Below are positions 6,694 to 22,895 of a stretch of DNA of 24,000 bases, piece after piece. The notes under the pieces were generated by a model. That model did not search any database, was not told where the DNA came from, and was given only the letters and a program-made list of their open reading frames with translations. Position numbers and translations under genes: made by a program. The DNA is from Elusimicrobiota bacterium (GTDB lineage: Bacteria > Elusimicrobiota > UBA8919). Location of the stretch: contig JAFGLF010000086.1 in assembly GCA_016928195.1 (NCBI GenBank), positions 1 through 24,000 on the forward strand, written 5' to 3'. How positions within the stretch are numbered: the stretch's first letter is position 1; each line of letters starts with the position of its first letter.

Positions 6694-6705
6694 AATTTGA
6701 TAAAT

Positions 6706-6801
6706 GATTACACTGATTTCTAAAGACGATTACACAGATTTAAGGGCGTCTCGCCAGCTATTGAATTAATCTGTGTAATCTGCAGTTTAATCTGTGTAAT
6801 C
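6706..6801. repeat. intercistronic inverted word-array element (motA|motB spacer), GATTACACAGATT type
   Basis: GATTACACTGATT 6706-6718 and GATTACACAGATT 6728-6740 are followed by a 27-nt loop containing GGCGtctCGCC (6745-6755). Then come AATCTGTGTAATC 6768-6780 and 6789-6801. The inner stem is 13/13 bp and the outer 12/13. GATT starts at 6706, 6715, 6728 and 6737; AATC starts at 6768, 6777, 6789 and 6798. Confidence 0.85.
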
Positions 6802-6805
6802 ATGT

Positions 6806-7591
6806 TCATGCGGCTGTTGATTTTATAGCAAGCCGCTGTGTCGGTTCCAGATATGCCTTTAAGTTTGATTCCATTATTATAGGGCTCACACCGGATTGTA
6901 AAAGCAGAACCCCGCGAATAATGATTTCTTTTATTAAAAGCTCTTCTTCGCTTCTGCGTCTTAATTTTCCTGCCATAGGATAAAACAAAAGATACCCTGC
7001 GGAAAGACCGTAGAATGCCGCAGAAAGTGCCAGTGCCATTCTTGCAGGTACTTTTGACGGATCGTCAACACTGCTCAAAAGAAGAATCATTCCGAGAACC
7101 GTTCCGATGATTCCGAATGCAGGCGCATAAGTTCCGAGTGAATTGAAAATTTCCTGACCGACTTTATGTCTTTCCCTGATAAACCCGATTTCTGTCTCTA
7201 ACATGTTTCTTATAAATTCAGAATCATAACCGTCTATTACAAGCTGGGTACCTCTTCTCATAAAATCGTTCTTTACAGCTTTTACATCGGTTTCCAGCGA
7301 AAGAATTCCTTCTGTCCTTGCTTTTTTTGTAAAATCAACAAAAGTACTGACGATTTCGGTTGTGTCCTCATCGGTTGTTGTAAACAGCACTTTTCTTAAA
7401 ACCTTTCTTGTACCGAATACCTGACCTAGCGGATAATTGACAAGAAGCGCACAGAAGGTTCCGCCGATTACTACCAGAAAACCTTCCATGCTGATAAAAA
7501 GCTGTAGTGCGGCAAAACCCTGCTGATGTACGATTGCCGCAATAGCTAATCCTAAAAATACAATTATACCTGTAATTGTCGCTATATCCAT
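6806..7591 (-). CDS. motA: flagellar motor stator protein MotA (MotA/TolQ/ExbB proton channel family)
   Basis: Track ORF of 261 aa. It has a four-TM layout with a large cytoplasmic loop and a C-terminal channel region (GTYAPAFGIIGTVLGMI, ALSAAFYG). It sits in flbD-motA-motB context. Confidence 0.85.
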   Translation of the reverse strand: MDIATITGIIVFLGLAIAAIVHQQGFAALQLFISMEGFLVVIGGTFCALLVNYPLGQVFGTRKVLRKVLFTTTDEDTTEIVSTFVDFTKKARTEGILSLETDVKAVKNDFMRRGTQLVIDGYDSEFIRNMLETEIGFIRERHKVGQEIFNSLGTYAPAFGIIGTVLGMILLLSSVDDPSKVPARMALALSAAFYGLSAGYLLFYPMAGKLRRRSEEELLIKEIIIRGVLLLQSGVSPIIMESNLKAYLEPTQRLAIKSTAA

Positions 7592-7597
7592 ATTCTA

Positions 7598-7715
7598 CCT
7601 CGCTACGCTCGGAAACGCTAATTCCCCTGCCACTAAACCTTGGCGGGCGGGCGCGAATCTAACGCTGATATTCGCGAATATTCGCGTTCTGTATTTTATT
7701 CGTGTGTATTCGCGT
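7598..7715. repeat. intercistronic word-array element (flbD|motA spacer), CGCGAAT type, with a GC-rich hairpin module
   Basis: Modules in order: CCTCGCTACGCTC 7598-7610, GC-rich hairpin about 7624-7651, CGCGAAT 7652-7658 and AATCTAACGC 7656-7665. Then ATTCGCG at 7670 and 7680, ATTCGTG at 7698 and ATTCGCG at 7708. The last two words lie inside the flbD 3' codons. Confidence 0.8.
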
Positions 7716-7902
7716 TGTGTTTAGAATAAATTCTTTTTTTAAATTCGACTATTCTGTTTACTACCTCATCCGGGCTTTCCTTAACAATTATCTGCGAATC
7801 TGTAGTTAAGATAATAGTCGTGTTGGGATGACACGCCATATTATCGATTAAGTCAGGATTTATATACAGTTCTTCACCGTTCAATTTTGTTAGTTTAATC
7901 AT
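7696..7902 (-). CDS. flbD: flagellar protein FlbD
   Basis: Track ORF of 68 aa. MIKLTKLNGEELYINPDLIDNM....TIILTTDSQIIVKESPDEVVNRIVEFKKRI matches my memory of the FlbD family pattern, and the gene lies upstream of motAB. The last eight codons (KHNANTHE) are encoded by repeat words (see findings). Confidence 0.75.
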   Translation of the reverse strand: MIKLTKLNGEELYINPDLIDNMACHPNTTIILTTDSQIIVKESPDEVVNRIVEFKKRIYSKHNANTHE

Positions 7903-7908
7903 TAAATA

Positions 7909-7954
7909 TACGAATGTACACGAATAATCAAAAAATCACGAATGAAACACGAAT
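7909..7954. repeat. four direct (C)ACGAAT words in the flbD 5' UTR, complementary to the ATTCGYG array downstream of flbD
   Basis: TACGAAT 7909-7915, then CACGAAT at 7919-7925, 7937-7943 and 7948-7954. Spacing is 10, 18, 11, compared with 10, 18, 10 for the ATTCGYG words at 7670-7714. Confidence 0.8.
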
Positions 7955-7978
7955 GGAGTCTATGTGCTTATCAGAATA

Positions 7979-8006
7979 ATTATAACATTTTTAGCCGACT
8001 TGTCAA
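7979..8006 (-). promoter_or_regulatory. near-consensus sigma-70-type promoter upstream of flbD-motAB
   Basis: The minus strand reads TTGACA (8006-8001), a 16-nt spacer ending in TGT, then TATAAT (7984-7979). This is an extended -10 (TGnTATAAT). Confidence 0.65.
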
Positions 8007-8039
8007 CCCCGTATAAATCTTTTTAAGATTCTTCGGGGT
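8006..8039. other. nested hairpin abutting the -35 box
   Basis: ACCCCG 8006-8011 pairs with CGGGGT 8034-8039. This encloses AATCTT 8016-8021 / AAGATT 8025-8030 with a TTT loop. GTCAACCCC is repeated directly at 8002-8010 and 8038-8046. Confidence 0.6.
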
Positions 8040-8091
8040 CAACCCCCCGCACCAGAACAAGTTCGGTATAGGGTAAACCCTGTATCGAGTT

Positions 8092-8838
8092 CTACTCTGG
8101 TACAGGGTTCCTCTGGCGGTTTATTTCATAAAATATTACTGAAGCTGACATAGCTGCGTTCAATGAGCCGATTTTTTGGGTTATAGGTATCTTTATTAAA
8201 AAATCACATTTTTCTTTTGTTGTTCTCTGCATACCGCTTCCTTCGCTGCCTATTACAACTGCTACCTTGCCTTTTATTTCCTTTTCCGGCATTGATTCAC
8301 CCGACATATCAGCACCGTAAATCCAAAAACCGTTTTTCTTAAGCGCTTCTATGGCGTAAACTATATTGGCAATGCGGACAATGGGAATATGTTCTATTGC
8401 TCCTGCGGACGCTTTTGAAGTGCCTGTTGAAATACCGGCTGCTGCTCTGTGCTGTACAATTATAGCATCTATTCCGAAACAGACCGCCGAACGTATTATG
8501 GTTCCGAGATTTTGTGGGTCTTCTATACCGTCAAGAATACATACAGCCGCATCTTTTTTTTCCTTGAGCAGTTTTATCATTTGTTCGAACTGGATATACT
8601 CCTTTTGTGATACATATGCAACAACGCCCTGGTTATTAGGAGAAAAAGAAACCAGTTTGCGGCTTTCGACAAACTGTACAATAATTTTTTTCTTACGTGC
8701 AATAGACAATATATGGTTAACAATATCTCCTTTGAAGTGTTTGGCAATAAGTATTTTTTTAAAGTTTCTCTTTCCGGCACTGAGTGCCTCATAAACCGGG
8801 TGCCTTCCGTAAATGATTTCTGTACTCATATAGTTCAA
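8092..8838 (-). CDS. rlmB: 23S rRNA (guanosine-2'-O-)-methyltransferase RlmB (SpoU/TrmH family)
   Basis: Track ORF of 248 aa. N-terminal IYGRHPVYEAL substrate-binding-domain pattern and SpoU motifs (LDGIEDPQNLGTIIRSA, VVIGSEGSGM, GSLNAAMSASVIFYE). The track start at 8838 is TTG; an ATG at 8829 (MSTEIIYG...) is an equally plausible start. Confidence 0.85.
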   Translation of the reverse strand: MNYMSTEIIYGRHPVYEALSAGKRNFKKILIAKHFKGDIVNHILSIARKKKIIVQFVESRKLVSFSPNNQGVVAYVSQKEYIQFEQMIKLLKEKKDAAVCILDGIEDPQNLGTIIRSAVCFGIDAIIVQHRAAAGISTGTSKASAGAIEHIPIVRIANIVYAIEALKKNGFWIYGADMSGESMPEKEIKGKVAVVIGSEGSGMQRTTKEKCDFLIKIPITQKIGSLNAAMSASVIFYEINRQRNPVPE

Positions 8839-8839
8839 C

Positions 8840-8941
8840 CGCGGATTACGCAGAATCCGCCATCCGCCAACTGGCGGAGGCGGACGCAGATTACGCAGAG
8901 ATTTTCTCAGCGGTCTCAGCGAAACTTCTGCGGTTTCTGCG
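8840..8941. repeat. intercistronic inverted word-array element (cysS|rlmB spacer), CGCAGA type, with an inserted GC hairpin
   Basis: Forward arm: CGCGGA 8840-8845 and CGCAGA 8849-8854, then a GC hairpin (CCGCC 8857-8861, CCGCC 8864-8868 / GGCGG 8873-8877, GGCGG 8879-8883), then CGCAGA 8885-8890 and 8894-8899. Reverse arm: TCTCAGCG 8905-8912 and 8914-8921, TCTGCG 8927-8932 and 8936-8941. GATTACGCAGA occurs twice (8844-8854, 8889-8899). Confidence 0.8.
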
Positions 8942-8943
8942 AG

Positions 8944-10341
8944 CTATGTTTTCTTGAGTTTAGGACCGGTTTTAGTATCCTCGATCTCAAAACCCTCTTT
9001 TTTGATTTTATCCCTCAATTCATCGGCCAGTTTCCAGTCCTTGTTTTTTCTTGCCTGTTCCCGGTCCTTAAGTAGTTTTTGGATATTGGCAGATGCTTCG
9101 ATTTTATTTTCTTTCATTTCGCCGATATTTAATCCGAGAACCTCGTCGAATTTACAAATGGCAGCATATTTCGAATCAGCAGCTATTTTATCATCATTCA
9201 TAAGATCCAGTGTAACTGCCAATGCTACCGGCGTATTCAAGTCATCATTTATTGCTGATTCGAATTTTTTAATATGACTGCTGGTATCTGTAGTTCCGCC
9301 TTTTTTATTATTTCTGATTTCGATTATTTTGTTTTTGAATTTTTCATAACTGTTTTCCACGTTATCCAAAGCTTTCCATGAAAAATTCAGTTCTGACCTG
9401 TAATGTGAACCCAAACAGAAGTATCTGTATGATAACGGTCTATAGCCTTTTTTTTCTAATAAACCAAGTTTTAGGAAGTTTTCGGCAGATTTTGCCATTT
9501 TGCCTTCTTTAACAATAAGGAAATTATTATGAAACCATAGTTTAACCCACGGATGTACATTCATAGCTGTCTCTGCCTGAGCTATCTCGTTTGTATGATG
9601 AACCGGAATATGGTCGATACCTCCTGAGTGAATATCGAACTGATTCCCGAGATACTTTGAGGACATCGCACAACACTCGATATGCCACCCCGGATACCCG
9701 GTACCCCATGGGCTTTCCCATTTCATGGTGTGAGATTTACCGAATTTTGAACCTTCAAGAGAAAACCACAAAACAAAATCTCTCGGGTGTTTTTTATTTT
9801 CATCAACTTCTGTTCTAGCACCTTCTTTAAGATCATCCAGTTTTAATCTTGCAAGTTCCGAATAGTGTTTGAATTTACTCGTATCAAAATAAAGATTCCC
9901 GCCTGCTGAATATGTATAACCTGCAGTTTCTATCTTTTTGATCATATCAATCATTTCTTTAATATGTTCGGTTGCTTTACACCAGACATCGGGTTCCTGT
10001 ATATTAAGTTTTTTCATGTCATCTTTGAAGGTTTTAGTATAGAAATCTGCTATTTCCCAAACAGTTTTCCCTTCCCTTTCGGCGCCTTTTTCTATCTTAT
10101 CCTCACCGGAATCTGCATCGTCTGTAAGATGTCCCACGTCTGTTATATTCATAACATGTTTTATTTTATAATTATTGTATTTTAAAGTCCGCTTTAGAAT
10201 ATCTGCACATATATAAGCCCTCAGGTTGCCGATATGGGCATAATTATAAACAGTGGGACCGCAACTATAAAATCCGACAGTTTCTTTTATCGGTACAAAT
10301 TCTTCTTTTTTTCTGGATAATGTATTATAAAGTTTCAGCAT
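8944..10341 (-). CDS. cysS: cysteine--tRNA ligase
   Basis: Track ORF of 465 aa. Class I motifs AHIGNLR (HIGH) and KMAKS (KMSKS), and the Zn-binding pattern GYPGWHIECCAMS. The start overlaps the ispF stop (ATGCTGA, 10335-10341). Confidence 0.97.
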   Translation of the reverse strand: MLKLYNTLSRKKEEFVPIKETVGFYSCGPTVYNYAHIGNLRAYICADILKRTLKYNNYKIKHVMNITDVGHLTDDADSGEDKIEKGAEREGKTVWEIADFYTKTFKDDMKKLNIQEPDVWCKATEHIKEMIDMIKKIETAGYTYSAGGNLYFDTSKFKHYSELARLKLDDLKEGARTEVDENKKHPRDFVLWFSLEGSKFGKSHTMKWESPWGTGYPGWHIECCAMSSKYLGNQFDIHSGGIDHIPVHHTNEIAQAETAMNVHPWVKLWFHNNFLIVKEGKMAKSAENFLKLGLLEKKGYRPLSYRYFCLGSHYRSELNFSWKALDNVENSYEKFKNKIIEIRNNKKGGTTDTSSHIKKFESAINDDLNTPVALAVTLDLMNDDKIAADSKYAAICKFDEVLGLNIGEMKENKIEASANIQKLLKDREQARKNKDWKLADELRDKIKKEGFEIEDTKTGPKLKKT

Positions 10342-10814
10342 TTTTCAATTAAGCATACTGAATAAGCACAGATTGCCTTGCCTTTGCCTATTTCCCCCAC
10401 TCCTTCGTTTGTAGTTGCCTTTATACTGATATGTTTTGTCCCGGCGATTTTAGACATCAGTTTTTTCATTTTTGCAGTATAAGGAGAAATCCTGGGCTGT
10501 TTTATGACCAGCATTGTGTCAATATTAATGATTTTATATCCTGCTTTTTTCAATAAACCACAGGTTTCTTTAAGTAAAATAACGCTTGAGATATTCTTGT
10601 ATTTTTTTTCCGTATTAGGGAAGTAATGTCCTATGTCTTTAAGTGTTGCCGCACCAAGCAGTGAATCGCATACAGCATGTAAAAGTACGTCTCCATCCGA
10701 ATGGGCAAGGAATTTCTTTGAAAATGGGATTCTTATGCCTCCAAGATAAATGGACTTGCCTTTTATAAGCCTGTGAATATCGTAACCGAAACCGACATGT
10801 AGTTCAGAGTTCAT
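10335..10814 (-). CDS. ispF: 2-C-methyl-D-erythritol 2,4-cyclodiphosphate synthase
   Basis: Track ORF of 159 aa with the motifs GFGYDIHRL and AHSDGDVLLHAVCDSLLGA. Confidence 0.95.
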   Translation of the reverse strand: MNSELHVGFGYDIHRLIKGKSIYLGGIRIPFSKKFLAHSDGDVLLHAVCDSLLGAATLKDIGHYFPNTEKKYKNISSVILLKETCGLLKKAGYKIINIDTMLVIKQPRISPYTAKMKKLMSKIAGTKHISIKATTNEGVGEIGKGKAICAYSVCLIEKC

Positions 10815-10819
10815 AATTT

Positions 10820-10861
10820 GAAAATTAGAAAGATTAAAATATTACAAAAATTTAAAAGATT
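10820..10861. repeat. A-rich 9-nt-period word array downstream of the four-helix-bundle gene (left arm)
   Basis: GAAAATTAGAAAGATT 10820-10835, ATTAAAATATT 10833-10843 and AAAAGATT 10854-10861. Each is complementary to a segment at 11224-11259. Confidence 0.8.
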
Positions 10862-11223
10862 TAAGATTTTCTTAAATATTTTATAAAATTTGCTAATTGT
10901 TGAGAAATTTTCACAGTATTTTTAAAAACTTTTTCAAACTCATTTCTGGAAATATAACCAATGTCAACCGCAACATATAATTGTGCTCGTAATTCACCAG
11001 CAGAGCTTTTAGCATATATCAGGAATCTAATAAACTCTTTATTGTTGTGTCGTTCAAATCCTTCTGCTATATTTGAAATAACTGAAACAGCGGAGCGTTG
11101 TATCTGTTCTTTTAAGCCAAAATCTTTTTTAAATCTGTCATTTAAAGTTAGTCTATATACCTCTGCTACTAATTTTCTCGAATCTATCCATACCTGTAAT
11201 TCCTCAAATCTTTCAACTTTCAT
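10861..11223 (-). CDS. four-helix-bundle protein (23S rRNA intervening-sequence protein / Avd-like family)
   Basis: Track ORF of 120 aa. The family pattern is clear: FEELQVW..SRKLVAEVYRLT, FGLKEQIQRSAVSVISNIAEGFERHNNKEFIRFLIYAKSSAGELRAQL. It is inserted between ispD and ispF and bracketed by complementary repeats. Confidence 0.9.
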   Translation of the reverse strand: MKVERFEELQVWIDSRKLVAEVYRLTLNDRFKKDFGLKEQIQRSAVSVISNIAEGFERHNNKEFIRFLIYAKSSAGELRAQLYVAVDIGYISRNEFEKVFKNTVKISQQLANFIKYLRKS

Positions 11224-11259
11224 AATCTTTCTAATTTTTCAATCTTTTAATATTTTAAT
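11224..11259. repeat. T-rich word array abutting the four-helix-bundle start codon and overlapping the ispD 3' end (right arm)
   Basis: AATCTTTCTAATTTTTC 11224-11240 is the reverse complement of 10820-10835 with one extra T. AATCTTTT 11241-11248 is the exact reverse complement of 10854-10861. AATATTTTAAT 11249-11259 is the exact reverse complement of 10833-10843. Confidence 0.8.
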
Positions 11260-11880
11260 ATCCTCTTTTGTAGTTATTTTTATGTTCTTGTAGTCACCTA
11301 AAACTATTTTTACCTTTTTGCCGAGTCTTTCCACTAGTGCAGAATCATCCGTAGATAAATATCCGTCTTTGAATGCTTTTTTATATGCTTTTATTATTAA
11401 AGAATATTTGAATGTTTGCGGAGTCTGTGCCAGGAATATGCTTTTCCTCACAGGGGTTGAAACGGCAAGGCCATTCTTTACAATTTTTACCGTATCCTTT
11501 GCAGGAACAGCAACCACGGAAGCACCGTATTTTTTAGCTGATAATATACTTCTTTTTATAATCTGTGTGGTAATGAACGGACGTACACCATCGTGAATAA
11601 TAACAATGCCGGTATCGGATGGAAGTACGCATAAACCGTTGAAAACCGAATGTTGTCTTGTCTTCCCTCCTGCAACAATACTGACACCGGCAGGAAGATT
11701 AAGGTGCCTTGTAAGGTCCTCCTTGGGTAAAACAACAACTATATTGTTAATTTCCGGGACTTTTAAAAATTTTGAAAGAGCTGTTTCGAAGATACGTTTT
11801 TTACCCAAAAATATGAATTGTTTTTTCGAGCCGAATCTTTTTCCTAAACCTGCAGCAACTATAATTGCCGAAACTTTCAT
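11239..11880 (-). CDS. ispD: 2-C-methyl-D-erythritol 4-phosphate cytidylyltransferase
   Basis: Track ORF of 213 aa with IIVAAGLGKRFG near the N-terminus, IIHDGVRPF and QTPQTF. Confidence 0.93.
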   Translation of the reverse strand: MKVSAIIVAAGLGKRFGSKKQFIFLGKKRIFETALSKFLKVPEINNIVVVLPKEDLTRHLNLPAGVSIVAGGKTRQHSVFNGLCVLPSDTGIVIIHDGVRPFITTQIIKRSILSAKKYGASVVAVPAKDTVKIVKNGLAVSTPVRKSIFLAQTPQTFKYSLIIKAYKKAFKDGYLSTDDSALVERLGKKVKIVLGDYKNIKITTKEDIKILKD

Positions 11881-11914
11881 AAACGCCGATTGTAACTTAT
11901 AAATATGTGGTCAT

Positions 11915-11980
11915 CCCCGCCTGCGACCCGCCAGAACTGCCTGCCCGACGAAGGTCAGGCGGGCGTAGCTGTTGGCGGGT
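11915..11980. repeat. GC-rich compound hairpin (yacL-like|ispD spacer), with CCCGCC x2 and GGCGGG x2
   Basis: CCCGCC at 11916-11921 and 11927-11932; GGCGGG at 11958-11963 and 11974-11979. The outer stem ACCCGCCA 11926-11933 / TGGCGGGT 11973-11980 has 8 bp. The inner stem is CTGCCTG 11937-11943 / CAGGCGG 11956-11962. It abuts the TAA stop at 11980-11982. Confidence 0.75.
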
Positions 11981-12969: not shown

Positions 12970-12990
12970 AAAAACCTCCTATTAACTACA

Positions 12991-13068
12991 TGTAAAATAG
13001 AAAATGTAAAAAGTAAAATATAACGGACTTTAACTTTCAATTTTCAATTTTAGATTTTACATTTTTAG
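12991..13068. repeat. intercistronic inverted word-array element (radA|yacL-like spacer), GTAAAAT type, 7-nt period
   Basis: Forward arm is TGTAAAATAGAAAATGTAAAAAGTAAAAT (12991-13019). Reverse arm is ATTTTCA ATTTTAG ATTTTAC ATTTTTAG (13040-13068). AAAATGTAAAA 13001-13011 is the exact complement of TTTTACATTTT 13056-13066, and TAAAAT 13014-13019 of ATTTTA 13047-13052. The reverse arm lies inside the radA 3' codons. Confidence 0.8.
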
Positions 13069-14443
13069 ATGCCGTTATTGCTTCAAATACAGTATCAACA
13101 GGAACAACCTTTATTTTTGATTTTGTGCGGACTCCTTTTAGATTCACTTTGGGAATTATACACTTTTCAAATCCAAGCTTTTCAAATTCTGCCAATCTCT
13201 GAGATATATGAGTTACTGCTCTGACCTCTCCGGTAAGTCCGACTTCTCCGATAATTCCTGTTTTAGCCGATGTCTTAAAATTACCGAAAGCAGAAGCAAT
13301 GGCGCATGCCACAGCTAAATCCGATGAAGGTTCTCTTGTTTTGATACCGCCGACAACATTTACGAAAATATCCTGGTTGGATAACCGAATACCCAAACGT
13401 TTTTCCAGAACCGCAGCTATTATTATTACTCTGTTATAATCCAGTCCGGAAAACTGTCTTCTGGGTACAGGCATCGGCGTGGACGATACAAGTGCCTGGA
13501 TTTCCAGCAGAATCGGCCTGATGCCTTCAATAATGCATGTAATTACACTTCCTGAAGCATTTGTAGGTTTTTCACTGATGAAAAGTTCAGACGGATTTTT
13601 TACCTCTTTCAGTCCCTCTTCCAGCATTTCAAAGATTCCCACTTCGTTTGTGGAACCAAATCTGTTTTTAAAACATCTTAAAAGCCGGTATATATGATGT
13701 TGTTCGGAACTGAAATAAAGAACCGTATCGACAATGTGCTCAAGAATACGCGGACCTGCAAGAGTACCTTCCTTTGTAACATGACCGCATACAAATGTTG
13801 TAATCGACATCGATTTACTCACCGATAAAAGTTCAGCAGTGGTTTCTCTTATTTGCGAAACACTTCCAGGTGCAGAGCCTATATCATCCCTGTACATGGT
13901 CTGTATAGAATCTATGAAAAGAAATTTCGGCTTAACATCCTTAACTTTTGATATTATTTCCGAAAGCAGTGTTTCAGAAGCAAGAAAGAGATTACCGGAT
14001 TCGATTTTTAGCCTCTGGGCACGCATTTTTAGCTGTTCCAACGACTCTTCTCCCGAAACATATAGACACGTTAGTCCCCCGCCAGAATTGGCAGAGGATG
14101 AAAGATGTCCTGCTATCTGTAAAAGCAGAGTGGATTTACCTATTCCCGGTTCTCCGCCTATCAGAACCATTTGACCGTCTACAAGTCCGCCGCCAAGCAG
14201 ATTGTCAAATTCGCTTATATATGTTTTATACCTGTTTTTTATTGATTGTATTCCGGAAATTTCATTTATTTTTTTTACAGGTGATGAAAAACTAGTAATA
14301 TTCGGTCTTTGTTTTGAAGTAGGAACTTTACGTTCTTCTACAAACGAATTCCATTTCCCGCAATCAGGACATCTGCCCAACCATTTGGTTGATTCATATC
14401 CGCATTCCTGACAAATAAATTGAAATTTTTCTTTAGTCTTCAT
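13037..14443 (-). CDS. radA: DNA repair protein RadA/Sms
   Basis: Track ORF of 468 aa. Zn finger (CQECGYESTKWLGRCPDCGKW), Walker A (GGEPGIGKST), the KNRFG motif and a Lon-protease-like C-terminal domain. The last ~10 codons (SKNVKSKIEN) lie inside a repeat arm. Confidence 0.95.
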   Translation of the reverse strand: MKTKEKFQFICQECGYESTKWLGRCPDCGKWNSFVEERKVPTSKQRPNITSFSSPVKKINEISGIQSIKNRYKTYISEFDNLLGGGLVDGQMVLIGGEPGIGKSTLLLQIAGHLSSSANSGGGLTCLYVSGEESLEQLKMRAQRLKIESGNLFLASETLLSEIISKVKDVKPKFLFIDSIQTMYRDDIGSAPGSVSQIRETTAELLSVSKSMSITTFVCGHVTKEGTLAGPRILEHIVDTVLYFSSEQHHIYRLLRCFKNRFGSTNEVGIFEMLEEGLKEVKNPSELFISEKPTNASGSVITCIIEGIRPILLEIQALVSSTPMPVPRRQFSGLDYNRVIIIAAVLEKRLGIRLSNQDIFVNVVGGIKTREPSSDLAVACAIASAFGNFKTSAKTGIIGEVGLTGEVRAVTHISQRLAEFEKLGFEKCIIPKVNLKGVRTKSKIKVVPVDTVFEAITASKNVKSKIEN

Positions 14444-14449: not shown

Positions 14450-14537
14450 AACGCAAATTATCGCTAATCTAACGCGAATTGTCGCAAATTTTTTATTAGC
14501 GTGTATTCGCGTTGGTGTTTATTCGCGTATATTCGCG
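14450..14537. repeat. intercistronic inverted word-array element (mlaD|radA spacer), CGCGAAT type
   Basis: Forward words: CGCAAAT 14452-14458, CGCTAAT 14462-14468, CGCGAAT 14473-14479 and CGCAAAT 14483-14489. A T5 loop follows. Reverse words: ATTAGCG 14495-14501, then ATTCGCG at 14505-14511, 14521-14527 and 14531-14537. AATCTAACGC lies at 14466-14475. Confidence 0.85.
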
Positions 14538-15372: not shown

Positions 15373-15373
15373 A

Positions 15374-15494
15374 GTCGCTCCTCTTCGCTCCGCTTTAATC
15401 CGCCGCGGCGGACTAATCTAACGCTAACTGTCGCGAATAACTGCTTTTAATTCGTATATATTCGCGTTGTCTTATCATTTCGCGTGAATTTGCG
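15374..15494. repeat. intercistronic inverted word-array element (mlaF|mlaD spacer), CGCGAAT type, with a GC palindrome
   Basis: Modules in order: GTCGCTCCTCTTCGCTC 15374-15390, AATCCGCCGCGGCGGA 15397-15412 (12-nt perfect palindrome at 15400-15411) and AATCTAACGC 15415-15424. Forward words are CGCTAAC 15422-15428 and CGCGAAT 15432-15438. Reverse words are ATTCGTA 15450-15456, ATTCGCG 15460-15466, ATTTCGCG 15477-15484 and ATTTGCG 15488-15494. Confidence 0.8.
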
Positions 15495-15496
15495 TT

Positions 15497-16263: not shown

Positions 16264-16343
16264 ATACGAATTACCGCGAATCAACTACCGAATTACCACA
16301 AATAATTAGCGGTGATTTGGATTTTTATTTGCGGTCATTTGCG
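16264..16343. repeat. intercistronic inverted word-array element (mlaE|mlaF spacer), more degenerate
   Basis: Forward words are ACGAAT 16266-16271, CGCGAAT 16275-16281, CCGAAT 16288-16293 and CACAAAT 16297-16303. Reverse words are ATTAGCG 16305-16311, ATTTGG 16315-16320, ATTTGCGG 16327-16334 and ATTTGCG 16337-16343. Spacing is 10, 12, 10 on both arms. Confidence 0.7.
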
Positions 16344-17136: not shown

Positions 17137-17137
17137 T

Positions 17138-17257
17138 TCGCTTCGCTCAAATACGAATTACACGAATTGCAGCAAATGACACGAATAAGTTCGGATGCGA
17201 TTCGATTTTTTTATTCGGCATTTATTCGTTAATTCTATTTATATGTTTCTATTCGTG
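17138..17257. repeat. intercistronic inverted word-array element (alr|mlaE spacer), ACGAAT type
   Basis: TCGCTTCGCTC 17138-17148 abuts the mlaE start. Forward words are ACGAAT 17153-17158 and 17162-17167, GCAAAT 17172-17177 and ACGAAT 17181-17186. Reverse words are ATTCGA 17200-17205, ATTCGG 17213-17218, ATTCGT 17224-17229 and ATTCGTG 17251-17257. Confidence 0.75.
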
Positions 17258-17260
17258 ATG

Positions 17261-18382: not shown

Positions 18383-18385
18383 ATA

Positions 18386-19756
18386 TTATTTACCGGCGCT
18401 TTCGAATCTGGTATACTCCTTGAAGAATCTCATATTTATTGTAGGGGTTCTGCCGTTTCTATTTTTAGCAACAATTAATTCTGCATTACTGATCAAACTT
18501 GAAGCTTCAATACTTTCAGGATTATTACTATATAATTCCGGCAGATAGAGCATTAAAACCATGTCGGCATCCTGTTCTATGGCACCCGACTCTCTTAAAT
18601 CTGCCAGACGCGGTTTCCCTGCCTGACTGCCGGTTCTTTTTTCAGGTTCCCTTGACAACTGTGATAGTGCTATTACAGGAACATCGAGGTCTTTGGACAT
18701 GATTTTAAGCGAACGTGAAATCTCCGCTACATCCTGCTGACGGTACTCAGAACGTCCGGTTTTACCAGCCATAAGCTGAAGATAATCTATGATAATAAGA
18801 TCAAGATCTTTAATTTCTGTTGCAAGACGTCTTGCCCGTGCTTTCATTTCCAGAACGCTAAGTGCTGCAGAATCATCAATGAATATTTTTGCATCTTTTA
18901 GTTTCTCACCTGCAGTTGTAAGCCTTGGCCAGTATTCCTTTGTAAAATATCCCGTTCTAACTTTAGTACTTGATACCCTTGCCTGGGAACATAAAAATCT
19001 CATAAGCAGTTCATCATTTGACATTTCAAGTGAAAATATCAATATAGATTTTTTATGTAAAAGTGCTGCATTTTCGGCAATATTCAGACCGAGCGATGTT
19101 TTACCTGTCCCGGGCCGTCCTGCGATAATAATCAGATTTGATTTACGGAAACCTCCGCTTGCCCTGTCTAAATCAACAAATCCGCTTGGTATACCAGGAA
19201 CCTCGTTTTTATTTTCATAAAGTGCTTCTATATTATCCAGTGCGGGATTTATAAGGTTGGTTACTTTTACAGGCCCTCTTATTATTCTTTTCTCGGAAAT
19301 ATTAAATATAATCTGGGAGATTGTATCTGTAACGATGTCTATATCTTCCAATTTAGAGGCAGTTACATCCCCGATTATTTTTCTGCCTGCCCTTAACAAG
19401 TCTCTTAGAATTGATTTATCCTTTACGATTTTAGCATAATGTTCAACATTTGATGCTGTAACTACTGTGTCCACAAGTGAAGCAAGGTAATTATTACCAC
19501 CCAATGCTGCTACAGTAGGTTCTGATTTTGTAGTTTCGCCAATTAGAACTATATCCACACTGCCTTTGGTCATATCATACATTTTGATTATCTCACGAAA
19601 AATTACTCTGTGCGCGGTAGCATAAAAGTCGCCTTCTTCAAGCATATCAAGGGCAACCTCTATTGCTTCTCTTTCTATAAGCATTGACCCAAGTACAGCC
19701 CTTTCGGCTTCTAAATTCTGCGGTATAATTATTTCGGTTAAAATATTATCTGCCAT
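18386..19756 (-). CDS. dnaB: replicative DNA helicase DnaB
   Basis: Track ORF of 456 aa. N-terminal PQNLEAERAVLGSML, Walker A AGRPGTGKTS, IIIDYLQLM and the SQLSR motif. No intein-sized insertion. Confidence 0.96.
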   Translation of the reverse strand: MADNILTEIIIPQNLEAERAVLGSMLIEREAIEVALDMLEEGDFYATAHRVIFREIIKMYDMTKGSVDIVLIGETTKSEPTVAALGGNNYLASLVDTVVTASNVEHYAKIVKDKSILRDLLRAGRKIIGDVTASKLEDIDIVTDTISQIIFNISEKRIIRGPVKVTNLINPALDNIEALYENKNEVPGIPSGFVDLDRASGGFRKSNLIIIAGRPGTGKTSLGLNIAENAALLHKKSILIFSLEMSNDELLMRFLCSQARVSSTKVRTGYFTKEYWPRLTTAGEKLKDAKIFIDDSAALSVLEMKARARRLATEIKDLDLIIIDYLQLMAGKTGRSEYRQQDVAEISRSLKIMSKDLDVPVIALSQLSREPEKRTGSQAGKPRLADLRESGAIEQDADMVLMLYLPELYSNNPESIEASSLISNAELIVAKNRNGRTPTINMRFFKEYTRFESAGK

Positions 19757-19774
19757 ACCTACCTTCCCATTTTA

Positions 19775-20266
19775 TTATTCTTTATTCTCCTGAGTTCCCT
19801 TATCCTCTGATTTTTCAGCCTCCTTTCTGACAACCCAGACCTTTATCATTGCAGTAACTTCATGGTGAATTTTTATTTTAATATCAAAAGCCCCGAGTTC
19901 CTTTAAAGGGTGTTCGAGAATGATATCTTTTTTATCAATATTAAATCCTTCAGATTTTAATGCTTCTGAAATATCCGATGCGACAACCGAGCCGAAAACT
20001 TTGTTTTCCTTTCCTACTTCAACGGATATTGTTACCGATACTTCCGAAAGTTTATTTGCAAATTCCTGAGCCTTTTCAATTTCTTTTTTTAAATTTTCAA
20101 GGGCTTTGGCCTTATACTTCTCTACAGTTTTTAAATTATTTCTTGTTGCTTCAAGAGCTAATCCTTTAGGAAAAAGAAAATTCCTTGCATAACCGTCTTT
20201 TACGTTTTTTACATCGCCTACTTTTCCCAATCCCGCAACCTCCTGTTTTAAAATAACCTTTGCCAC
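19775..20266 (-). CDS. rplI: 50S ribosomal protein L9
   Basis: Track ORF of 163 aa with a GTG start preceded by AAGGGGGT. N-terminus (M)[36 protein letters not shown]. Confidence 0.93.
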
Positions 20267-20280
20267 TTTTACCCCCTTAT

Positions 20281-21201
20281 TTATATTTTATCTTCAGTAT
20301 CTTGCACAGAAATGTCATTTTCTTTATTACGACGTCTTTTTCTAAAGTCAAACCATACATCAGAAATACCGAGAAGTACAGCTAACGGCGGATATAAAAA
20401 GAAAACCAGATATACAATAAAAATTGCCATACGGGATTTGCTAAAAAGATATTTTCCTATAGATATTCCGCCTATGAAATAAATAAAAAATAACAGATAA
20501 AGTAAGTTCTCAAAAAGCTGGGAAAGCGTATTATGTTTAAAGCGATAACCTATTAAGTAAAACAGGATAGAAAAAATTAAAATAAATATTACATTTTCAG
20601 GTATTCGCCACTTTTCGAAGGATGGGAGTTTTTTAAGAGTAATATTAAACTTTGGAGCAGTGAAAGATAAAAAGATGTAGGAAAGAAAAACATTCATCAT
20701 TATAAATATTACCGCAATTGCATAAATATTTTTCATGATAACATTAAAAATTATATCCAGTTTTTCTTTAGGTATATCGGATACAATTTTACTAACCATT
20801 CCTGAAGTCTGGGGATCCCCAATGTTTAGTGACAGCATCAACACAAGACTTGTAATGGATACTATAAAACATGATTCAAGGGTTATTCGCCACGGGTTAT
20901 TTTTTTTAATAATACCATAATATAAAACTACAGAATTCAATACAACAAATAAGCTGAAAGGAAAAAGAAAAATATATCCCGTCGGGACTATCTTATATAT
21001 AGCCAGCGAGGACAATAAAATTCCGATTAAACCGGTTAAGATACCGTTTTTAATAAACAGAAGCACAAGCGATACAGATGAAAAAGGCAAGAAGAATATA
21101 CCGATGACCGGGATGGAAAATCCGGACACAAAAAATAAGAATATTAGAATAGAAAAAATTAAAACACGTTTTGCGGTAGATATAGGCATTGTATTTTTCA
21201 A
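20281..21201 (-). CDS. polytopic membrane protein, YybS-like (DUF2232-type) by position and topology
   Basis: Track ORF of 306 aa, highly hydrophobic with multiple TM helices. It sits between rpsR and rplI, as yybS does in Firmicutes. The track start at 21201 is TTG; ATG at 21189 (MPISTAKR...) is an alternative. Confidence 0.6.
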
Positions 21202-21206
21202 ATACT

Positions 21207-21316
21207 GATTACACAGATTTCTTTCGCCTCGGCGAATCCGCCGCGGCGGAAAAAACGATTACACAGATTCCCATCTAGACTTTAATCTGCGTAATCTGCC
21301 GTATAATCTTTTAATC
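21207..21316. repeat. intercistronic inverted word-array element (rpsR|yybS-like spacer), GATTACACAGATT type, with a GC palindrome
   Basis: GATTACACAGATT 21207-21219, then AATCCGCCGCGGCGGA 21235-21250, then GATTACACAGATT 21257-21269. Reverse arm is AATCTGCGTAATC 21284-21296 and the degenerate AATCTTTTAATC 21305-21316. A further 7-bp hairpin GAGATTG 21318-21324 / CAATCTC 21338-21344 overlaps the rpsR stop. Confidence 0.85.
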
Positions 21317-21342
21317 AGAGATTGCCTGGTTTTTTAACAATC

Positions 21343-21624
21343 TCATAAATTTGAAAACGGAATTATGGCAATATTTCTTGCTCTTTTTATTTCGCGGGTC
21401 AAAATTCTCTGATGTTTTACACAAACACCTGTAAATCTTGAAGATAAAATTTTACCTCTTTCGGTAATATAGTTTTTAATAAGACCTATATTTTTATAAT
21501 CAATCTCTATTTTATCTGCACAAAATCTGCAGAATTTTTTCTTAAACATTTTGCGGCGTTTTGAAAATTTCCCCTTTTTATGTATAAACCTTTTTTTTGG
21601 TGCACCACTACCTGGTCCTGGCAT
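21343..21624 (-). CDS. rpsR: 30S ribosomal protein S18
   Basis: Track ORF of 93 aa with CRFCADKIEIDYKN....YITERGKILSSRFTG.C.KHQR.L...IKRAR. AGGAGGG lies upstream of the ATG. Confidence 0.93.
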   Translation of the reverse strand: MPGPGSGAPKKRFIHKKGKFSKRRKMFKKKFCRFCADKIEIDYKNIGLIKNYITERGKILSSRFTGVCVKHQRILTREIKRARNIAIIPFSNL

Positions 21625-21644
21625 GTTATTTCCCTCCTATAATT

Positions 21645-21742
21645 GCGATTCAGACAGATGGAAGCGAATGCATACAGATTAAATCTGTATAAATCCGAAC
21701 TTTTATCTGTTTAAATCCGCGTTTTTCATCCGTTTACATCGT
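21645..21742. repeat. intercistronic inverted word-array element (ssb|rpsR spacer), alternating ACAGAT / GCGAAT words
   Basis: Forward words are GCGATT 21645-21650, ACAGAT 21654-21659, GCGAAT 21664-21669 and ACAGAT 21674-21679. The central near-palindrome is ATACAGATT-A-AATCTGTAT (21672-21690). Reverse words are ATCTGT 21683-21688, ATCCG 21693-21697, ATCTGT 21705-21710, ATCCGC 21715-21720, ATCCGT 21728-21733 and ATCGT 21738-21742. Confidence 0.75.
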
Positions 21743-21750
21743 TCCTAATA

Positions 21751-22191
21751 TCAGAATGGTATTTCATCAGCTTTTTTCTTTTTTGTTTTAGTAGACGGTG
21801 TATACTCTTCAACCGGTGTTTCACTTACGGAATCTTCATCTACATCCGGACCTTTACTGCTTTTTTTCGGCATTAGATGAAGTCTCTCCCCTATCACTAC
21901 CAATTTACTTCTTTTTTGACCGTCTTTGCTTTCCCATGTGTCCTGTTTCAGACGGCCTTCTACAAGTATGCTGTCGCCTTTGTGGACATAGTTTTGACAA
22001 ATTTCTGCCTGTTTCCCAAAAAATGTTATATCAACAAAACATGCTTCATCTTTCGGCGAACCATCGGCAAGCTTATATCTCCTGTTAATACCAACTCCAA
22101 AGCCTGCAATAGGAGTACCGCTTGGAGCAAATCTAACTTCGGGATCCCTGGTAACGTTTCCCATTAAAATAACTTTACTAAAACTTGCCAT
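21751..22191 (-). CDS. ssb: single-stranded DNA-binding protein
   Basis: Track ORF of 146 aa. OB-fold N-terminus (KVILMGNVTRDPEVRF) and an acidic C-terminal tip ending DEIPF. GGAGG lies upstream. Confidence 0.95.
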   Translation of the reverse strand: MASFSKVILMGNVTRDPEVRFAPSGTPIAGFGVGINRRYKLADGSPKDEACFVDITFFGKQAEICQNYVHKGDSILVEGRLKQDTWESKDGQKRSKLVVIGERLHLMPKKSSKGPDVDEDSVSETPVEEYTPSTKTKKKKADEIPF

Positions 22192-22206
22192 ACAACCTCC
22201 ATGTAA

Positions 22207-22309
22207 GCGAAACGCAGTTGAAACTCATAGAAATTCATAGAAACTCATTGTTATTTTTAAACAACAGTATTTCTATTATATTTCTACCATATTTCCACCG
22301 TATTTCTAG
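22207..22309. repeat. intercistronic inverted word-array element (rpsF|ssb spacer), CATAGAAA type
   Basis: GAAA cores lie at 22209, 22220, 22230 and 22240, including CATAGAAA at 22226-22233 and 22236-22243. The loop contains TTGTT 22248-22252 / AACAA 22260-22264. TATTTCTA/TATTTCCA words have TTTC at 22270, 22281, 22292 and 22303. The last word overlaps the rpsF stop. Confidence 0.8.
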
Positions 22310-22665
22310 TTATCTTCGTTTTTGATATCTGTTTCTGCTGGTTTTTCTTCTTTTTTAGATTCTGTCTTTTTCTTTAGTGACTTATCAAGTTTTATGGTGA
22401 TATATTTAATCACAGAATCACTGGTTCTAAAAAAGTTTTCAAGTTCCGCGACGATTTTACCGTCACAGGAAAAATGAAAAAGGTAATAACTGCCTTCCTT
22501 ATATTTTTTCACCGGATAAGCAAGACGTCTTTTACCCCAGCTATCTGACAAAATAATGGTGCCTTCGTTCGAAGTTATAATTCCTTTGGTTTTTGTCAGA
22601 ACCGTGTCAACCTTTTCACTCGACAAGTTCGGTTTCAATATGAAAACCGTTTCATAATTAGGCAT
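22306..22665 (-). CDS. rpsF: 30S ribosomal protein S6
   Basis: The track ORF starts at 22686, but the ATG at 22665 is preceded by AAGGAGGAG at proper spacing. That start gives the canonical S6 N-terminus MPNYETVFILKP. Confidence 0.9.
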   Translation of the reverse strand: MPNYETVFILKPNLSSEKVDTVLTKTKGIITSNEGTIILSDSWGKRRLAYPVKKYKEGSYYLFHFSCDGKIVAELENFFRTSDSVIKYITIKLDKSLKKKTESKKEEKPAETDIKNEDN

Positions 22666-22797
22666 GAACTCCTCCTTTTTGGCCATAAACCCGATTATTG
22701 ATTTGTTTGCGGGTTAAGACCTCCCGACTCATCGATCGGGAAGTAAAGTGTAGGGGAACAACCTCAAGGGTGGTTAGAACCTGCACATTGCGTAGAT
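22666..22797 (-). promoter_or_regulatory. structured rpsF leader (candidate S6:S18 autoregulatory 5' UTR)
   Basis: In the mRNA sense there is an 8-bp hairpin CUUCCCGA-(8 nt)-UCGGGAGG (22743-22720), with one G.U pair only in this sense. A 6-bp hairpin AACCCG-(16 nt)-CGGGUU (22715-22688) sits just 5' of the AAGGAGGAG Shine-Dalgarno. I cannot confirm a match to the published rpsF-leader consensus by eye. Confidence 0.3.
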
Positions 22798-22832
22798 ATT
22801 ATAGCCTATCGCAAAAGTCGCTCTCGGCTAAT

Positions 22833-22895
22833 GATTACACAGATAGATAGTATGGACTTAATCTGTGTAATCGGTATTTTATAATCACTGTAATC
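22833..22895. repeat. GATTACACAGAT hairpin element within the predicted rpsF operon 5' UTR
   Basis: GATTACACAGAT 22833-22844 pairs with ATCTGTGTAATC 22861-22872 (12 bp, 16-nt loop). A further reverse copy, AATCACTGTAATC, lies at 22883-22895. Confidence 0.8.

Follow-up and report, generated by a model that had tools for sequence, protein, structure and literature searches.

Intervening sequences (IVSs) in bacterial rRNA are the closest described systems to the elements reported here. In Coxiella burnetii, a 428-nt selfish element of this kind occupies helix 45 of 23S rRNA; its loop contains an open reading frame (ORF) of the PF05635 family, and inverted repeats at its termini pair into a 28-bp stem (PMC4990558). 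The 5′ region of this IVS comprises two to three tandem GACAGAT heptamers and a degenerate fourth, with a number that varies between strains, and RNase III cleaves the element in vitro (PMC4990558). An rRNA IVS replaces a tetraloop, so that its extended stem is new sequence at that site, and, according to an idea of long standing, the IVS is mobile and its ORF serves this mobility (PMC4990558). Here, we analyzed a stretch of a bacterial chromosome, namely, positions 1 to 24,000 of contig JAFGLF010000086.1 from an Elusimicrobiota bacterium (termed the window; 24,000 nt), in which most long spacers between genes contain inverted arrays of short words. We propose, with moderate confidence, that these spacer elements constitute a selfish family of IVS-type hairpins, mostly without an ORF, that colonizes the spacers of operons.

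The elements in the window share several features with the rRNA IVSs of Coxiella, Leptospira, and Brucella (PMC4990558). Both have a PF05635 protein in the loop (element E4 in the window), a long stem of terminal inverted repeats, and short tandem 5′ repeats in variable number (GACAGAT in Coxiella and ACAGAT or CACAGATT words here). The GACAGAT heptamer of Coxiella is also the word of window element E12 and of the CACAGATT family. ORF-less forms, transcription within the host RNA, and a sporadic distribution suggesting horizontal transfer are further common traits. In contrast to rRNA IVSs, the elements described here are located in operon spacers and 5′ untranslated regions (UTRs) and not in helix 9, 25, or 45 of 23S rRNA; many copies, mostly ORF-less, occur within 16 kb instead of one per rRNA gene; and the arms are built of 2 + 2 double-words with a 9- to 11-nt period and an internal loop. 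In addition, a second cargo family (GxxExxY) was found. Since they are located outside rRNA, the defining site of an IVS, we regard the elements as a variant of the IVS kind and not as members of it, with RNase III cleavage as a prediction. They probably work like rRNA IVSs and are probably related to them.

Inverted word arrays in operon spacers

Most long spacers between positions 6694 and 22968 contain short words that are repeated in tandem (two to four times with a period of 9 to 11 nt), followed by a loop and then by the reverse-complement words. Direct plus inverted copies of the best 7-mer exceeded those in dinucleotide shuffles in 10 of the 15 regions tested (p≤0.03). The spacers 11881-11979 (p=0.17), 15373-15496 (p=0.29), 17137-17260 (p=0.10), and 22687-22968 (p=0.20) were not individually significant. 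A generic detector (score of at least 6) recovered nine window elements, all of them in spacers and none in the approximately 85% of the sequence that is coding. Over 16 kb, the elements make up about 1190 of 1838 nt of spacer DNA, i.e., about two thirds, and at least eight unrelated words are used within this distance. The individual copies are listed below by position in the window, with p values from the comparison of word copies to shuffles and z values for the fold energy (pairs of z values refer to the two senses). A strand is given only for the copy that contains a gene.

E1, 6706..6801, MotA-to-MotB spacer: two GATTACAC[T/A]GATT (6706-6718, 6728-6740), a 27-nt loop, and two AATCTGTGTAATC (6768-6780, 6789-6801); z=-5.6 in both senses, p=0.000
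E2, 7652..7714, FlbD-to-MotA spacer, extending 19 nt into the flbD 3′ end: CGCGAAT / ATTCGCG words around a palindromic core (7670-7686); weak fold (z -0.7/-1.8), p=0.000
One-arm array, 7910..7954, flbD 5′ UTR: four ACGAAT on the plus strand (four AUUCGU in the mRNA)
E3, 8849..8941, CysS-to-TrmH spacer: three CGCAGA, then two TCTCAGCG and two TCTGCG; one arm has a GC-rich palindrome (8857-8883) nested between its words; z=-6.3/-7.0, p=0.000
E4, 10816..11259, minus strand, ORF-bearing copy: 5′ arm of GAAAGATT-type words (11207-11259, mRNA sense), gene (10861-11223), and 3′ arm of AATCTTT-type words (10816-10861)
E5, 11916..11979, PIN/TRAM-to-IspD spacer: GC-rich hairpin of two CCCGCC and two GGCGGG, a doubtful member; p=0.17, z about -1.8
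E6, 12990..13070, RadA-to-PIN spacer: ATGTAAAA-type words; p=0.06
E7, 14452..14537, MlaD-to-RadA spacer: the cleanest 4 + 4 array, with four CGC[A/T/G]AAT (spacing 10, 11, 10) and four ATT[A/C]GCG (10, 16, 10); in the mRNA, UUAUUUUU comes next and precedes AUG; z=-4.7 in the mRNA sense, p=0.000
E8, 15421..15494, MlaF-to-MlaD spacer: degenerate CGCGAAT / ATTCGCG words; p=0.29
E9, 16266..16342, MlaE-to-MlaF spacer: [A/G/C]CGAAT versus ATT[T/A]GC words; z=-6.7 in the plus sense and -3.1 in the mRNA sense, p=0.02
E10, 17153..17256, Alr-to-MlaE spacer: three ACGAAT and two to three ATTCGT; no stable fold (z=+0.5/-1.4), p=0.10
E11, 21207..21316, S18-to-DUF2232 spacer: GATTACACAGATT (21207-21219, 21257-21269), AATCTGCGTAATC (21284-21296), and a degenerate copy (~21304-21316); z=-5.5
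E12, 21654..21710, SSB-to-S18 spacer: two ACAGAT and two ATCTGT; z about -3, p=0.03
E13, 22228..22308, S6-to-SSB spacer: two TAGAAAT and four ATTTCTA; z=-3.1 in the mRNA sense, p=0.02
E14, 22833..22895, S6-operon 5′ UTR: a single GATTACACAGAT[A] with two AATC[T/A][G/C]TGTAATC, of the E1/E11 family

The word differed from locus to locus, and the opposite arm differed with it. Over 14 loci, the complementarity of each locus's own arms amounted to 172, compared to 99 +/- 11 when arms were permuted among loci (p≤5e-5). The arms covary: the pairing is conserved and the word is not. This permutation test took the place of a covariance model because the loci differ in words, periods, and loop sizes and are therefore not column-homologous; a covariance or R-scape-type alignment across such loci would be fitted to the pairing and was thus unsuitable. 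Fold energies of 8 of the 14 spacers were below those of shuffles by z<-3 in at least one sense, and the favored strand varied by locus. In E9, the same G/A change separates every word of one arm from the partner arm.

An earlier examination of this DNA, made from the letters and the ORFs (the sequence-only reading), had described the arrays, and much of that description was confirmed. The word coordinates and spacings were reproduced (GATT at 6706/6715/6728/6737 with its reverse words at 6768-6801; words of the CGCGAAT type at 14452/14462/14473/14483 as well as 14495/14505/14521/14531; and further words at 16266-16342 and 8905-8941). The compensatory variation between arms was borne out by the permutation test, and since the word varies while the pairing is conserved, a single sequence-specific DNA-binding protein cannot explain the elements, as had been argued. 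Other parts held only partially. The 4 + 4 plan claimed for 12 spacers is seen as a clean array in only about half of the copies. Of two spacers called partial, 7903-8091 indeed has one arm without any reverse-complement words, and the two-plus-two version in 11881-11979 is present as the nonsignificant E5. Folding better than shuffles applied to the eight spacers given above, and the remainder resembled the shuffles. The statement that nearly every long spacer contains an element is correct for most of them; the long spacer at ~1228-1353, outside the range covered by that reading, had none. It also inverted the causality: the spacers are long because an element is inside, as the same junctions measure 3 to 24 nt in a relative (L003; see below). 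A proposed pairing across the FlbD gene (7685/7938 and others) is better read as two separate partial elements, since the order of the words (T-rich and then A-rich) is reversed relative to every other copy and a candidate promoter (8006-7979) is located in the spacer.

E1, E11, and E14 have words, spacing, and part of the linkers in common, as seen in alignments. E11 corresponds to E1 with a 28-nt insertion of two small GC hairpins in one linker (CGCCTCGGCG at 21225 and CCGCCGCGGCGG at 21238). Linkers that separate the double-words of an arm repeatedly harbored small GC-rich perfect palindromes, as though another element of smaller size were inserting at this place. CCGCCGCGGCGG is present three times in the window (15400-15411 beside E8, 21238-21249, and 5827-5838; 0 expected), and the copy at 5827-5838 is located within the PPDK coding sequence, where it encodes RRGG. 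Other linker palindromes are found at 8857-8883 and 21225-21234; the sequences seen were CCGCCATCCGCCAACTGGCGGAGGCGG and CGCCTCGGCG (the latter at 21225), and TCCCGCTAAAGCGGGA is found in the related genome L002 (~9090-9105).

Several arms extend into genes. Arm words encode the last residues and the stop codon of IspD (11239-11259) and the last codons of flbD (7696-7714), and a seven-residue C-terminal extension of RadA (VKSKIEN*) is encoded by the E6 arm at 13037-13070. IspD ends with IKILKD*, whereas the tail of its relatives differs and overlaps ispF.

Four-helix-bundle and GxxExxY genes between the arms

The gene within E4 (10861-11223) matched PF05635 ("23S rRNA-intervening sequence protein"; E=2e-34) and TIGR02436 (E=9e-34). 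Its arms (38 nt, 76% complementary) close the ORF in the predicted minimum free energy and centroid structures. The sequence-only reading had correctly noted array words in the short flanks of this gene; in treating it as merely flanked, it missed that the gene is the cargo of one element copy. The GAAAGATT word also equals the codons of ERFE, a conserved motif at the beginning of this gene, which, like the first word of E13 (see below), hints at the seeding of words from local sequence.

Two four-helix-bundle genes in loci that had already been fetched (L102 and L123) showed the same flanking with other words (AGACAGA and GGCAGWA, respectively). In L123 (4407-4552), ~18 GGCAG[A/T]A heptamers upstream face four reverse-complement copies downstream, so arm lengths can become very unequal. 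Nine further four-helix-bundle genes, which came from Elusimicrobiota (three genes), Ignavibacteria, Pyrinomonadaceae, and four other contigs, were all located between inverted word arrays, some of them degenerate; one was in a cas operon. Inverted arrays thus flank 12 of 12 genes from metagenomes or metagenome-assembled genomes (MAGs) and 4 of 6 on plasmids of named strains (16 of 18 in total), the clear plasmid cases being those of Nostoc sp. ATCC 53789, Riemerella anatipestifer, Geminocystis NIES-3709, and Picosynechococcus PCC 7003. Three of the 18 genes are wedged in CRISPR-cas operons (L212 8001-8375, L219 1504-1863, and L221 1501-1857), where the insertion points are cas4/cas1, cas6/cas4, and cmr2/cmr3. 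Genes of the GxxExxY family (TIGR04256; PF13366, PD-(D/E)XK) were found in four of four cases in the metagenome loci between 5′ CACAGATT-type and 3′ AATCTGTG-type arrays.

The flanking was quantified per gene by scoring the upstream flank against the reverse-complemented downstream flank. The 16 metagenome/MAG cargo genes had a median score of 22.5 and a minimum of 18, compared to a median of 10, a 95th percentile of 16.9, and a maximum of 22 for 183 other genes of the same loci (Mann-Whitney p=2e-11). All 16 cargo genes scored above the 95th percentile, E4 with a score of 27. An unbiased scan of all loci for array pairs 300 to 500 nt apart with at least three matched words returned six pairs, five of which enclose a four-helix-bundle gene; the sixth (L078) is weak and located in GC-rich coding sequence. 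Pairs with two matched words enclose one four-helix-bundle gene (L102) and one GxxExxY gene (L110). The cargo genes that were checked against called or annotated neighbors were all co-oriented with the upstream host gene.

Words link ORF-bearing and ORF-less copies. A GxxExxY element between rpsK and rpsD (L191) has two GATTACACAGATT double-words per arm, with the spacing of E1, E11, and E14. Gene-less GAAAGATT hairpins were found in L002 and beside the four-helix-bundle gene of L203. The four-helix-bundle proteins of the window, L202, L203a, and L209 (55 to 66% identical) are all encoded between GAAAGATT arms at unrelated insertion sites, and those of L218 and L219 (74% identical) have AAAAGCT-type words in common. 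Exceptions are the pairs L102/L221 (63% identical) and L209/L212 (71%), which differ in their words.

Gain and loss of elements between relatives

The nearest genomes are two MAGs of uncultured Elusimicrobiota, L002 and L003, with RadA proteins 80 to 81% identical to that of the window and ~74 to 76% identical coding DNA. Most of the junctions that contain an element in the window are short in L003: MotA/MotB measures 112 nt in the window versus 3 nt in L003, MlaD/RadA 95 versus 6, MlaF/MlaD 124 versus 3, S6/SSB 114 versus 24, and S18/DUF2232 141 versus 3, and the 105-nt CysS/TrmH spacer corresponds to overlapping genes. In L002, the S18/DUF2232 junction is 3 nt long, and S6/SSB measures about 21 to 24 nt (L002/L003). 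Conversely, the DnaB/Alr junction has an element in L002 and none in the window (89 versus 3 nt). E9 has a positional counterpart in L002. Where junctions were filled in more than one genome, the words could differ: the MlaF/MlaD element of L002 uses CACGGAACAG/CACAGAACAG, and SSB/S18 has three different words in the window, L002, and L003. E7, on the other hand, matches an L002 element from another junction with 82% identity over 74 nt. Neither L002 nor L003 has the four-helix-bundle gene, and their ispD and ispF overlap. Since most of the same junctions in relatives are empty or contain other words, the element is unlikely to represent conserved punctuation. The sequence comparison indicates that the elements are insertions that are gained and lost between relatives and belong to dispersed families.

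Direct tandem repeats were noticed in L003 (13030-13075 and 11360-11400) where the window has hairpins, namely, two AACTCTAAACT over the ispD/ispF overlap and four TTCTTAA after radA; they may represent early or decayed stages. AAATACGGTG, the first word of E13 (window 22192-22305), resembles the short spacer AAAATA[C/T]GGGG of the relatives (L002 2621-2641, L003 2885-2908). This resemblance of the first E13 word to the ancestral spacer hints that some words may have been seeded from local sequence.

Distribution in other phyla and evolution of the arms

The architecture is present in Acidobacteriota, Cyanobacteriota, Bacteroidota, and many metagenome contigs. A scan of metagenome contigs for GATTACACAGATT-N(3-30)-GATT yielded at least 120 loci on contigs with 29 to 64% G+C, many of which consist of CCACAGATTACACAGATTNCACAGATT, a loop, and AATCTGTGNAATCTGTGTAATCTGTGG; some are nested. 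In two nested cases (L193 4942-5102 and L106 1042-1366), a CGCAGATT-word hairpin is located within the loop of a CACAGATT-word hairpin. One locus (L164) has four copies of a single family within 8 kb. Contigs of Pyrinomonadaceae (Acidobacteriota), which were fetched via RadA alone, contained up to 12 elements per 21 kb, and a Saganbacteria contig fetched in the same way (L077) contained two. Each of these elements has its own word (AGTCCCA, AGGGATG, GCGGATT, GTTTTCA, and others), and they often adjoin the next start codon. The detector found 0.38 elements per kb in the window, compared to a mean of 0.06 in RadA control loci outside the close relatives (Pyrinomonadaceae included). The word period was 7 to 8 nt in other lineages versus 9 to 11 nt in the window. 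The element family had been called lineage specific; this was wrong, as the architecture and even the GATTACACAGATT word are found in several phyla.

In three Pyrinomonadaceae species (72 to 85% nucleotide identity), one and the same junction still held an element, with concerted changes in every word of the two arms (AGGGATG/CATCCCT versus AAGGATG/CATCCTT and AGTCCCA versus AGTCTGG), and the word number at junction E was 3 versus 2. In the L045 element at 13373, the arm periods are 7 and 8 nt, and a complementary core is still common to both arms. Remnants of older arms adjoin the newer array in Pyrinomonadaceae. Slippage within an arm, combined with some process that restores the complementarity between arms, would produce such concerted changes.

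The arms also have a fixed handedness. Among high-quality elements, 8 of 8 from Elusimicrobiota and 36 of 45 from metagenome loci (a set picked by word search on both strands) have the A-rich word form as their 5′ arm; the G-rich form takes this place in 20 of 22 elements of Pyrinomonadaceae. Because a hairpin reads alike on both strands, this handedness is a property of the element and not an effect of the transcribed sense.

High-quality elements were distributed over co-directional, convergent, and divergent spacers at a ratio of 50:10:5, compared to a background of 529:123:156, so that divergent spacers, in which no gene ends, were mildly depleted (5 of 65 versus about 12 expected). These counts refer to the higher-score set only, since the crude ORF caller mislabels some true elements as coding and the detector at a score of 6 gives false positives in GC-rich loci.

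Gene content and promoters of the window

All window genes are on the minus strand. From right to left, they encode SIMPL, S6, SSB, S18, DUF2232, L9, DnaB, Alr, MlaE, MlaF, MlaD, RadA, a PIN/TRAM protein, IspD, the four-helix-bundle protein, IspF, CysS, TrmH, FlbD, MotA-like and MotB-like proteins, PPDK, and others. Two candidate promoters were recognized:

7979..8006, minus strand: candidate sigma-70-type promoter, TTGACA-16-TATAAT (12/12 match with an extended -10 TG), upstream of flbD-motA-motB and outside the element
22952-22924, minus strand: candidate sigma-70-type promoter (11/12 match) upstream of rpsF (S6 operon)

No minus-strand sigma-70 match in the 16-kb region is better than these two, which are located in its two longest spacers; the position of the rpsF match is kept in L002 and L003 (TTGCAA...TATAAT). 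As these matches are upstream, the element copies in the two spacers are read as 5′ UTR copies, and the match at 8006-7979 partly explains the 189-nt spacer upstream of flbD. Few further good promoter matches exist between the two, which suggests very long transcripts.

Rfam models gave no match in the window at the gathering score; at E≤1, ten related loci returned only sub-threshold models of miRNA precursors, i.e., generic long hairpins. No tRNA, tmRNA, or rRNA was found in the window. A Logan contig (L001) is identical to the window across 6.3 kb, and look-ups by exact protein returned only short Logan contigs that are identical to the window. The short-read contigs L001 and L222 (run SRR13394437) end at window positions ~17747 and, judging by its length, ~3975; neither end is within an element, and elements are located next to the ends of one short-read assembly of this sequence.

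Comparison with other repeat classes

Heptamer arrays are a further point of comparison. In Xanthomonas, GGGAATC arrays form 70 to 75 convergent inverted pairs that could form stem-loops (PMC4692102). These arrays and those of cyanobacteria (GGGGA[C/T]T; STRR) resemble the window elements in being short intergenic tandem units with strain-variable length that are mostly transcribed (PMC4692102). They differ in using one word genome-wide and are discussed as G-quadruplex formers, whereas many words are used here and the complementarity is conserved. The link to cargo genes also sets the window elements apart, although we found the same link on cyanobacterial plasmids. A single-word STRR was rejected based on the presence of at least eight words in 16 kb, the 9- to 11-nt period, and the 2 + 2 layout. 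The TAACTGA direct-repeat system (PMC4679880), with its single direct-repeat word, was not applicable.

REP/BIME/REPIN sequences with RAYT genes are likewise extragenic, palindromic, and dense, with a recognized part that is better conserved than the spacer between arms and a gene flanked by inverted repeat copies. However, no consistent GTAG or CGTC tag was present at or near any of 16 arms, and the arms are tandem words and not a single imperfect palindrome of 20 to 40 nt, with many unrelated words per genome. No RAYT (Y1 transposase) gene was found among the window ORFs, the flanked genes being those of PF05635 and TIGR04256. Correia elements are cotranscribed and cut by RNase III. Like Correia/NEMIS elements and bacterial MITEs, the window elements are small inverted-repeat insertions in transcribed spacers, with more ORF-less copies than autonomous ones; unlike them, they lack a known transposase partner and a detected target-site duplication, and their arms are internally repetitive and divergent in sequence between copies. 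The attC sites of integrons share with the elements imperfect palindromes between co-oriented genes, conservation of structure over sequence, and two-plus-two boxes, but no RYYYAAC / GTTRRRY boxes were present and the flanking genes are syntenic housekeeping genes and not cassettes. The checks of tags, repeats, and boxes thus agreed with the previous exclusion of REP/BIME, CRISPR, and attC.

A literature search, with subscription journals outside its reach, retrieved no account of such elements beyond rRNA, of ORF-less copies in operon spacers, or of the link to GxxExxY genes. A full-text search for the words GATTACACAGATT and AATCTGTGTAATC found no paper.

Discussion

The mechanism that we propose jointly with the IVS-type reading, and at the same level of confidence, is as follows. 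A full copy would consist of tandem words (5′ arm), a loop that contains a small cargo gene, and reverse-complement words (3′ arm). The cargo would be either a four-helix-bundle protein (PF05635/TIGR02436) or a GxxExxY PD-(D/E)XK nuclease-like protein (TIGR04256), oriented with the host genes. E4 would represent such a full copy, and the other ~12 copies in the window would be ORF-less derivatives with arms that are 5 to 30 nt apart. Upon transcription of the operon, the arms would pair as a long imperfect double-stranded RNA stem, which, by analogy to the rRNA IVSs, would be cut by RNase III. Cleavage would divide the transcript at the insertion or trim it there and thereby render the insertion tolerable, with an uncoupling of the neighboring cistrons as a side effect. 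The words would drift by replication slippage, leading to the gain or loss of whole words and to homogenization of an arm, and either selection for the stem or template switching inside the hairpin would reestablish complementarity, giving rise to the apparent covariation. ORF-less copies would spread via functions that are supplied by the cargo-bearing copies. The RNase III-type stem and the fast-evolving MITE-like family that the sequence-only reading had suggested come close to this mechanism in view of the features of the Coxiella IVS.

A number of observations weigh against the IVS-type reading. Cleavage by RNase III has been demonstrated only for rRNA copies, and its extension to the spacer elements would be by analogy. 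The preference for G.U mismatches in the mRNA sense, which a few mismatches had suggested, disappeared in a larger sample: in 70 co-directional elements, G.U-type transition mismatches amounted to 68 in the sense and 84 in the antisense direction (p=0.22), so this mismatch test does not demonstrate that an RNA stem is under selection. Six of the 14 spacers, including 17137-17260, 7592-7695, 12970-13066, and 15373-15496, folded no better than shuffles. Comparison of filled and empty junctions revealed neither a target-site duplication nor a clean boundary, the relatives (~75% nucleotide identity) being too distant for exact boundaries. With respect to an autonomous parent, as expected of a MITE, cargo-bearing relatives do exist; however, neither cargo family is a known transposase. 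The four-of-four result for GxxExxY genes was ascertained on one word, by which the metagenome loci (at least 120) had been picked. In Pseudanabaena galeata (L219, pPg_01), the four-helix-bundle gene is located between direct heptamer arrays (AAAAGCT ~17 times upstream, ~1390-1500; AAAAGCC ~10 times downstream, ~1865-1970), which looks like an insertion into an STRR-type tandem array, and the Calothrix gene is only weakly flanked by inverted arrays. These two cases fit a landing of cargo in existing arrays as well as arms that travel with it. Finally, no ORF-less hairpins were found near the four-helix-bundle elements of L204, L211, L212, and L214.

Several other explanations were considered. 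The elements could be intercistronic punctuation selected by the host, i.e., stems that are kept to process or stabilize segments of polycistronic mRNA and that set the relative expression of cistrons. A strict location between neighbors of the same direction, in long gene strings where promoter matches are few, would fit, as would the mild depletion of divergent spacers, the 8 of 14 spacers with z<-3, and the persistence of the element at junctions C and D across Pyrinomonadaceae species with ~80% nucleotide identity. However, an element is missing (3 to 24 nt) from the majority of these junctions in L003 and from several of those in L002, relatives with ~80% identical RadA; there is no G.U sense bias, and several copies are without a stable fold; the arms overwrite the ends of IspD, RadA, and FlbD; and the elements go together with two gene families whose behavior is that of selfish cargo. 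We therefore consider conserved punctuation, as favored in the sequence-only reading, unlikely, while some copies may have been co-opted by the host. A mutational by-product, in which small hairpins grow in place by slippage and quasi-palindrome template switching restores their complementarity without mobility or function, is likewise improbable as a full account. It would explain the differing word number between relatives at junction E, the concerted change of words in both arms, the unequal arm periods (7 versus 8 nt, L045 13373), the old-arm remnants beside new arrays, the likeness of the first E13 word to the ancestral spacer AAAATA[C/T]GG, the uniform G/A difference between the E9 arms, and the strand symmetry of G.U mismatches. 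It leaves unexplained why the same word family, spacing, and partly linkers are found at different junctions and in unrelated organisms and why two specific gene families are located in the loops. Such a process probably describes the evolution of the arms once an element is in place. Alternatively, the cargo genes alone could be mobile and insert into the loops of existing hairpins or tandem arrays, which would make the ORF-less elements independent in origin. We regard this as quite unlikely. The Pseudanabaena gene between direct AAAAGCT/AAAAGCC arrays is what insertion into a tandem array would give, related proteins with different words were noted above, and ORF-less hairpins greatly outnumber cargo-bearing ones in the window. 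On the other hand, related proteins at unrelated sites often have common words (GAAAGATT in four cases and AAAAGCT in two), the GAAAGATT word runs on into the 5′ coding sequence of the gene itself, and the extended stem of the rRNA IVS is new at the tetraloop that it replaces (PMC4990558). Each of these three explanations may be partly true for some steps.

Two further possibilities were given little weight. Iteron-like arrays of binding sites on double-stranded DNA, e.g., for a pentameric four-helix-bundle protein, would agree with words about one helical turn apart (the 9- to 11-nt period of the window), with the better conservation of words than of linkers within families, and with the persistence of some arrays without a stable fold; the use of at least eight unrelated words within 16 kb and of dozens in different taxa, the 7- to 8-nt period elsewhere, and the fact that complementarity of the arms is the conserved property make them very improbable. 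Rho-independent terminators with unusually long stems are the least credible of the explanations considered. A U run follows E7 and E9 just before the next start codon, and T runs are found in convergent metagenome copies (L172 and L103), but about 9 of 11 window copies are without a U tract. Terminator-like hits on the minus strand numbered 16 versus 11.5 +/- 4.1 in shuffles, with none in an element-bearing spacer, and elements are located inside conserved operons such as S6-SSB-S18 and MlaFED.

Beyond the window, we tentatively consider a wider interpretation possible. The elements may belong to a widespread superfamily of IVS-like selfish elements with four-helix-bundle (Avd-like) or GxxExxY cargo, of which rRNA IVSs would be the minority resident in rRNA. 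ORF-less derivatives would then populate operon spacers across many phyla, and the cargo proteins would operate on the hairpin arms, for either mobility or maintenance. This superfamily could possibly include part of the heptamer repeat phenomenon of cyanobacteria and Xanthomonas. If true, it would provide the first functional context for two large uncharacterized protein families (PF05635/TIGR02436 and TIGR04256) and would cover the nature and origin of rRNA intervening sequences with one testable problem. The same problem would comprise the sporadic single-gene insertions of both cargo families into operons, cas operons included, and the existence of genomes that are rich in short tandem repeats arranged as inverted pairs. 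For their host, the elements rewrite the 3′ ends of the IspD, RadA, and FlbD genes and, by analogy to the rRNA IVSs, probably cut long operon transcripts into pieces. The system constitutes a natural experiment in which complementarity is kept while the sequence turns over fast.

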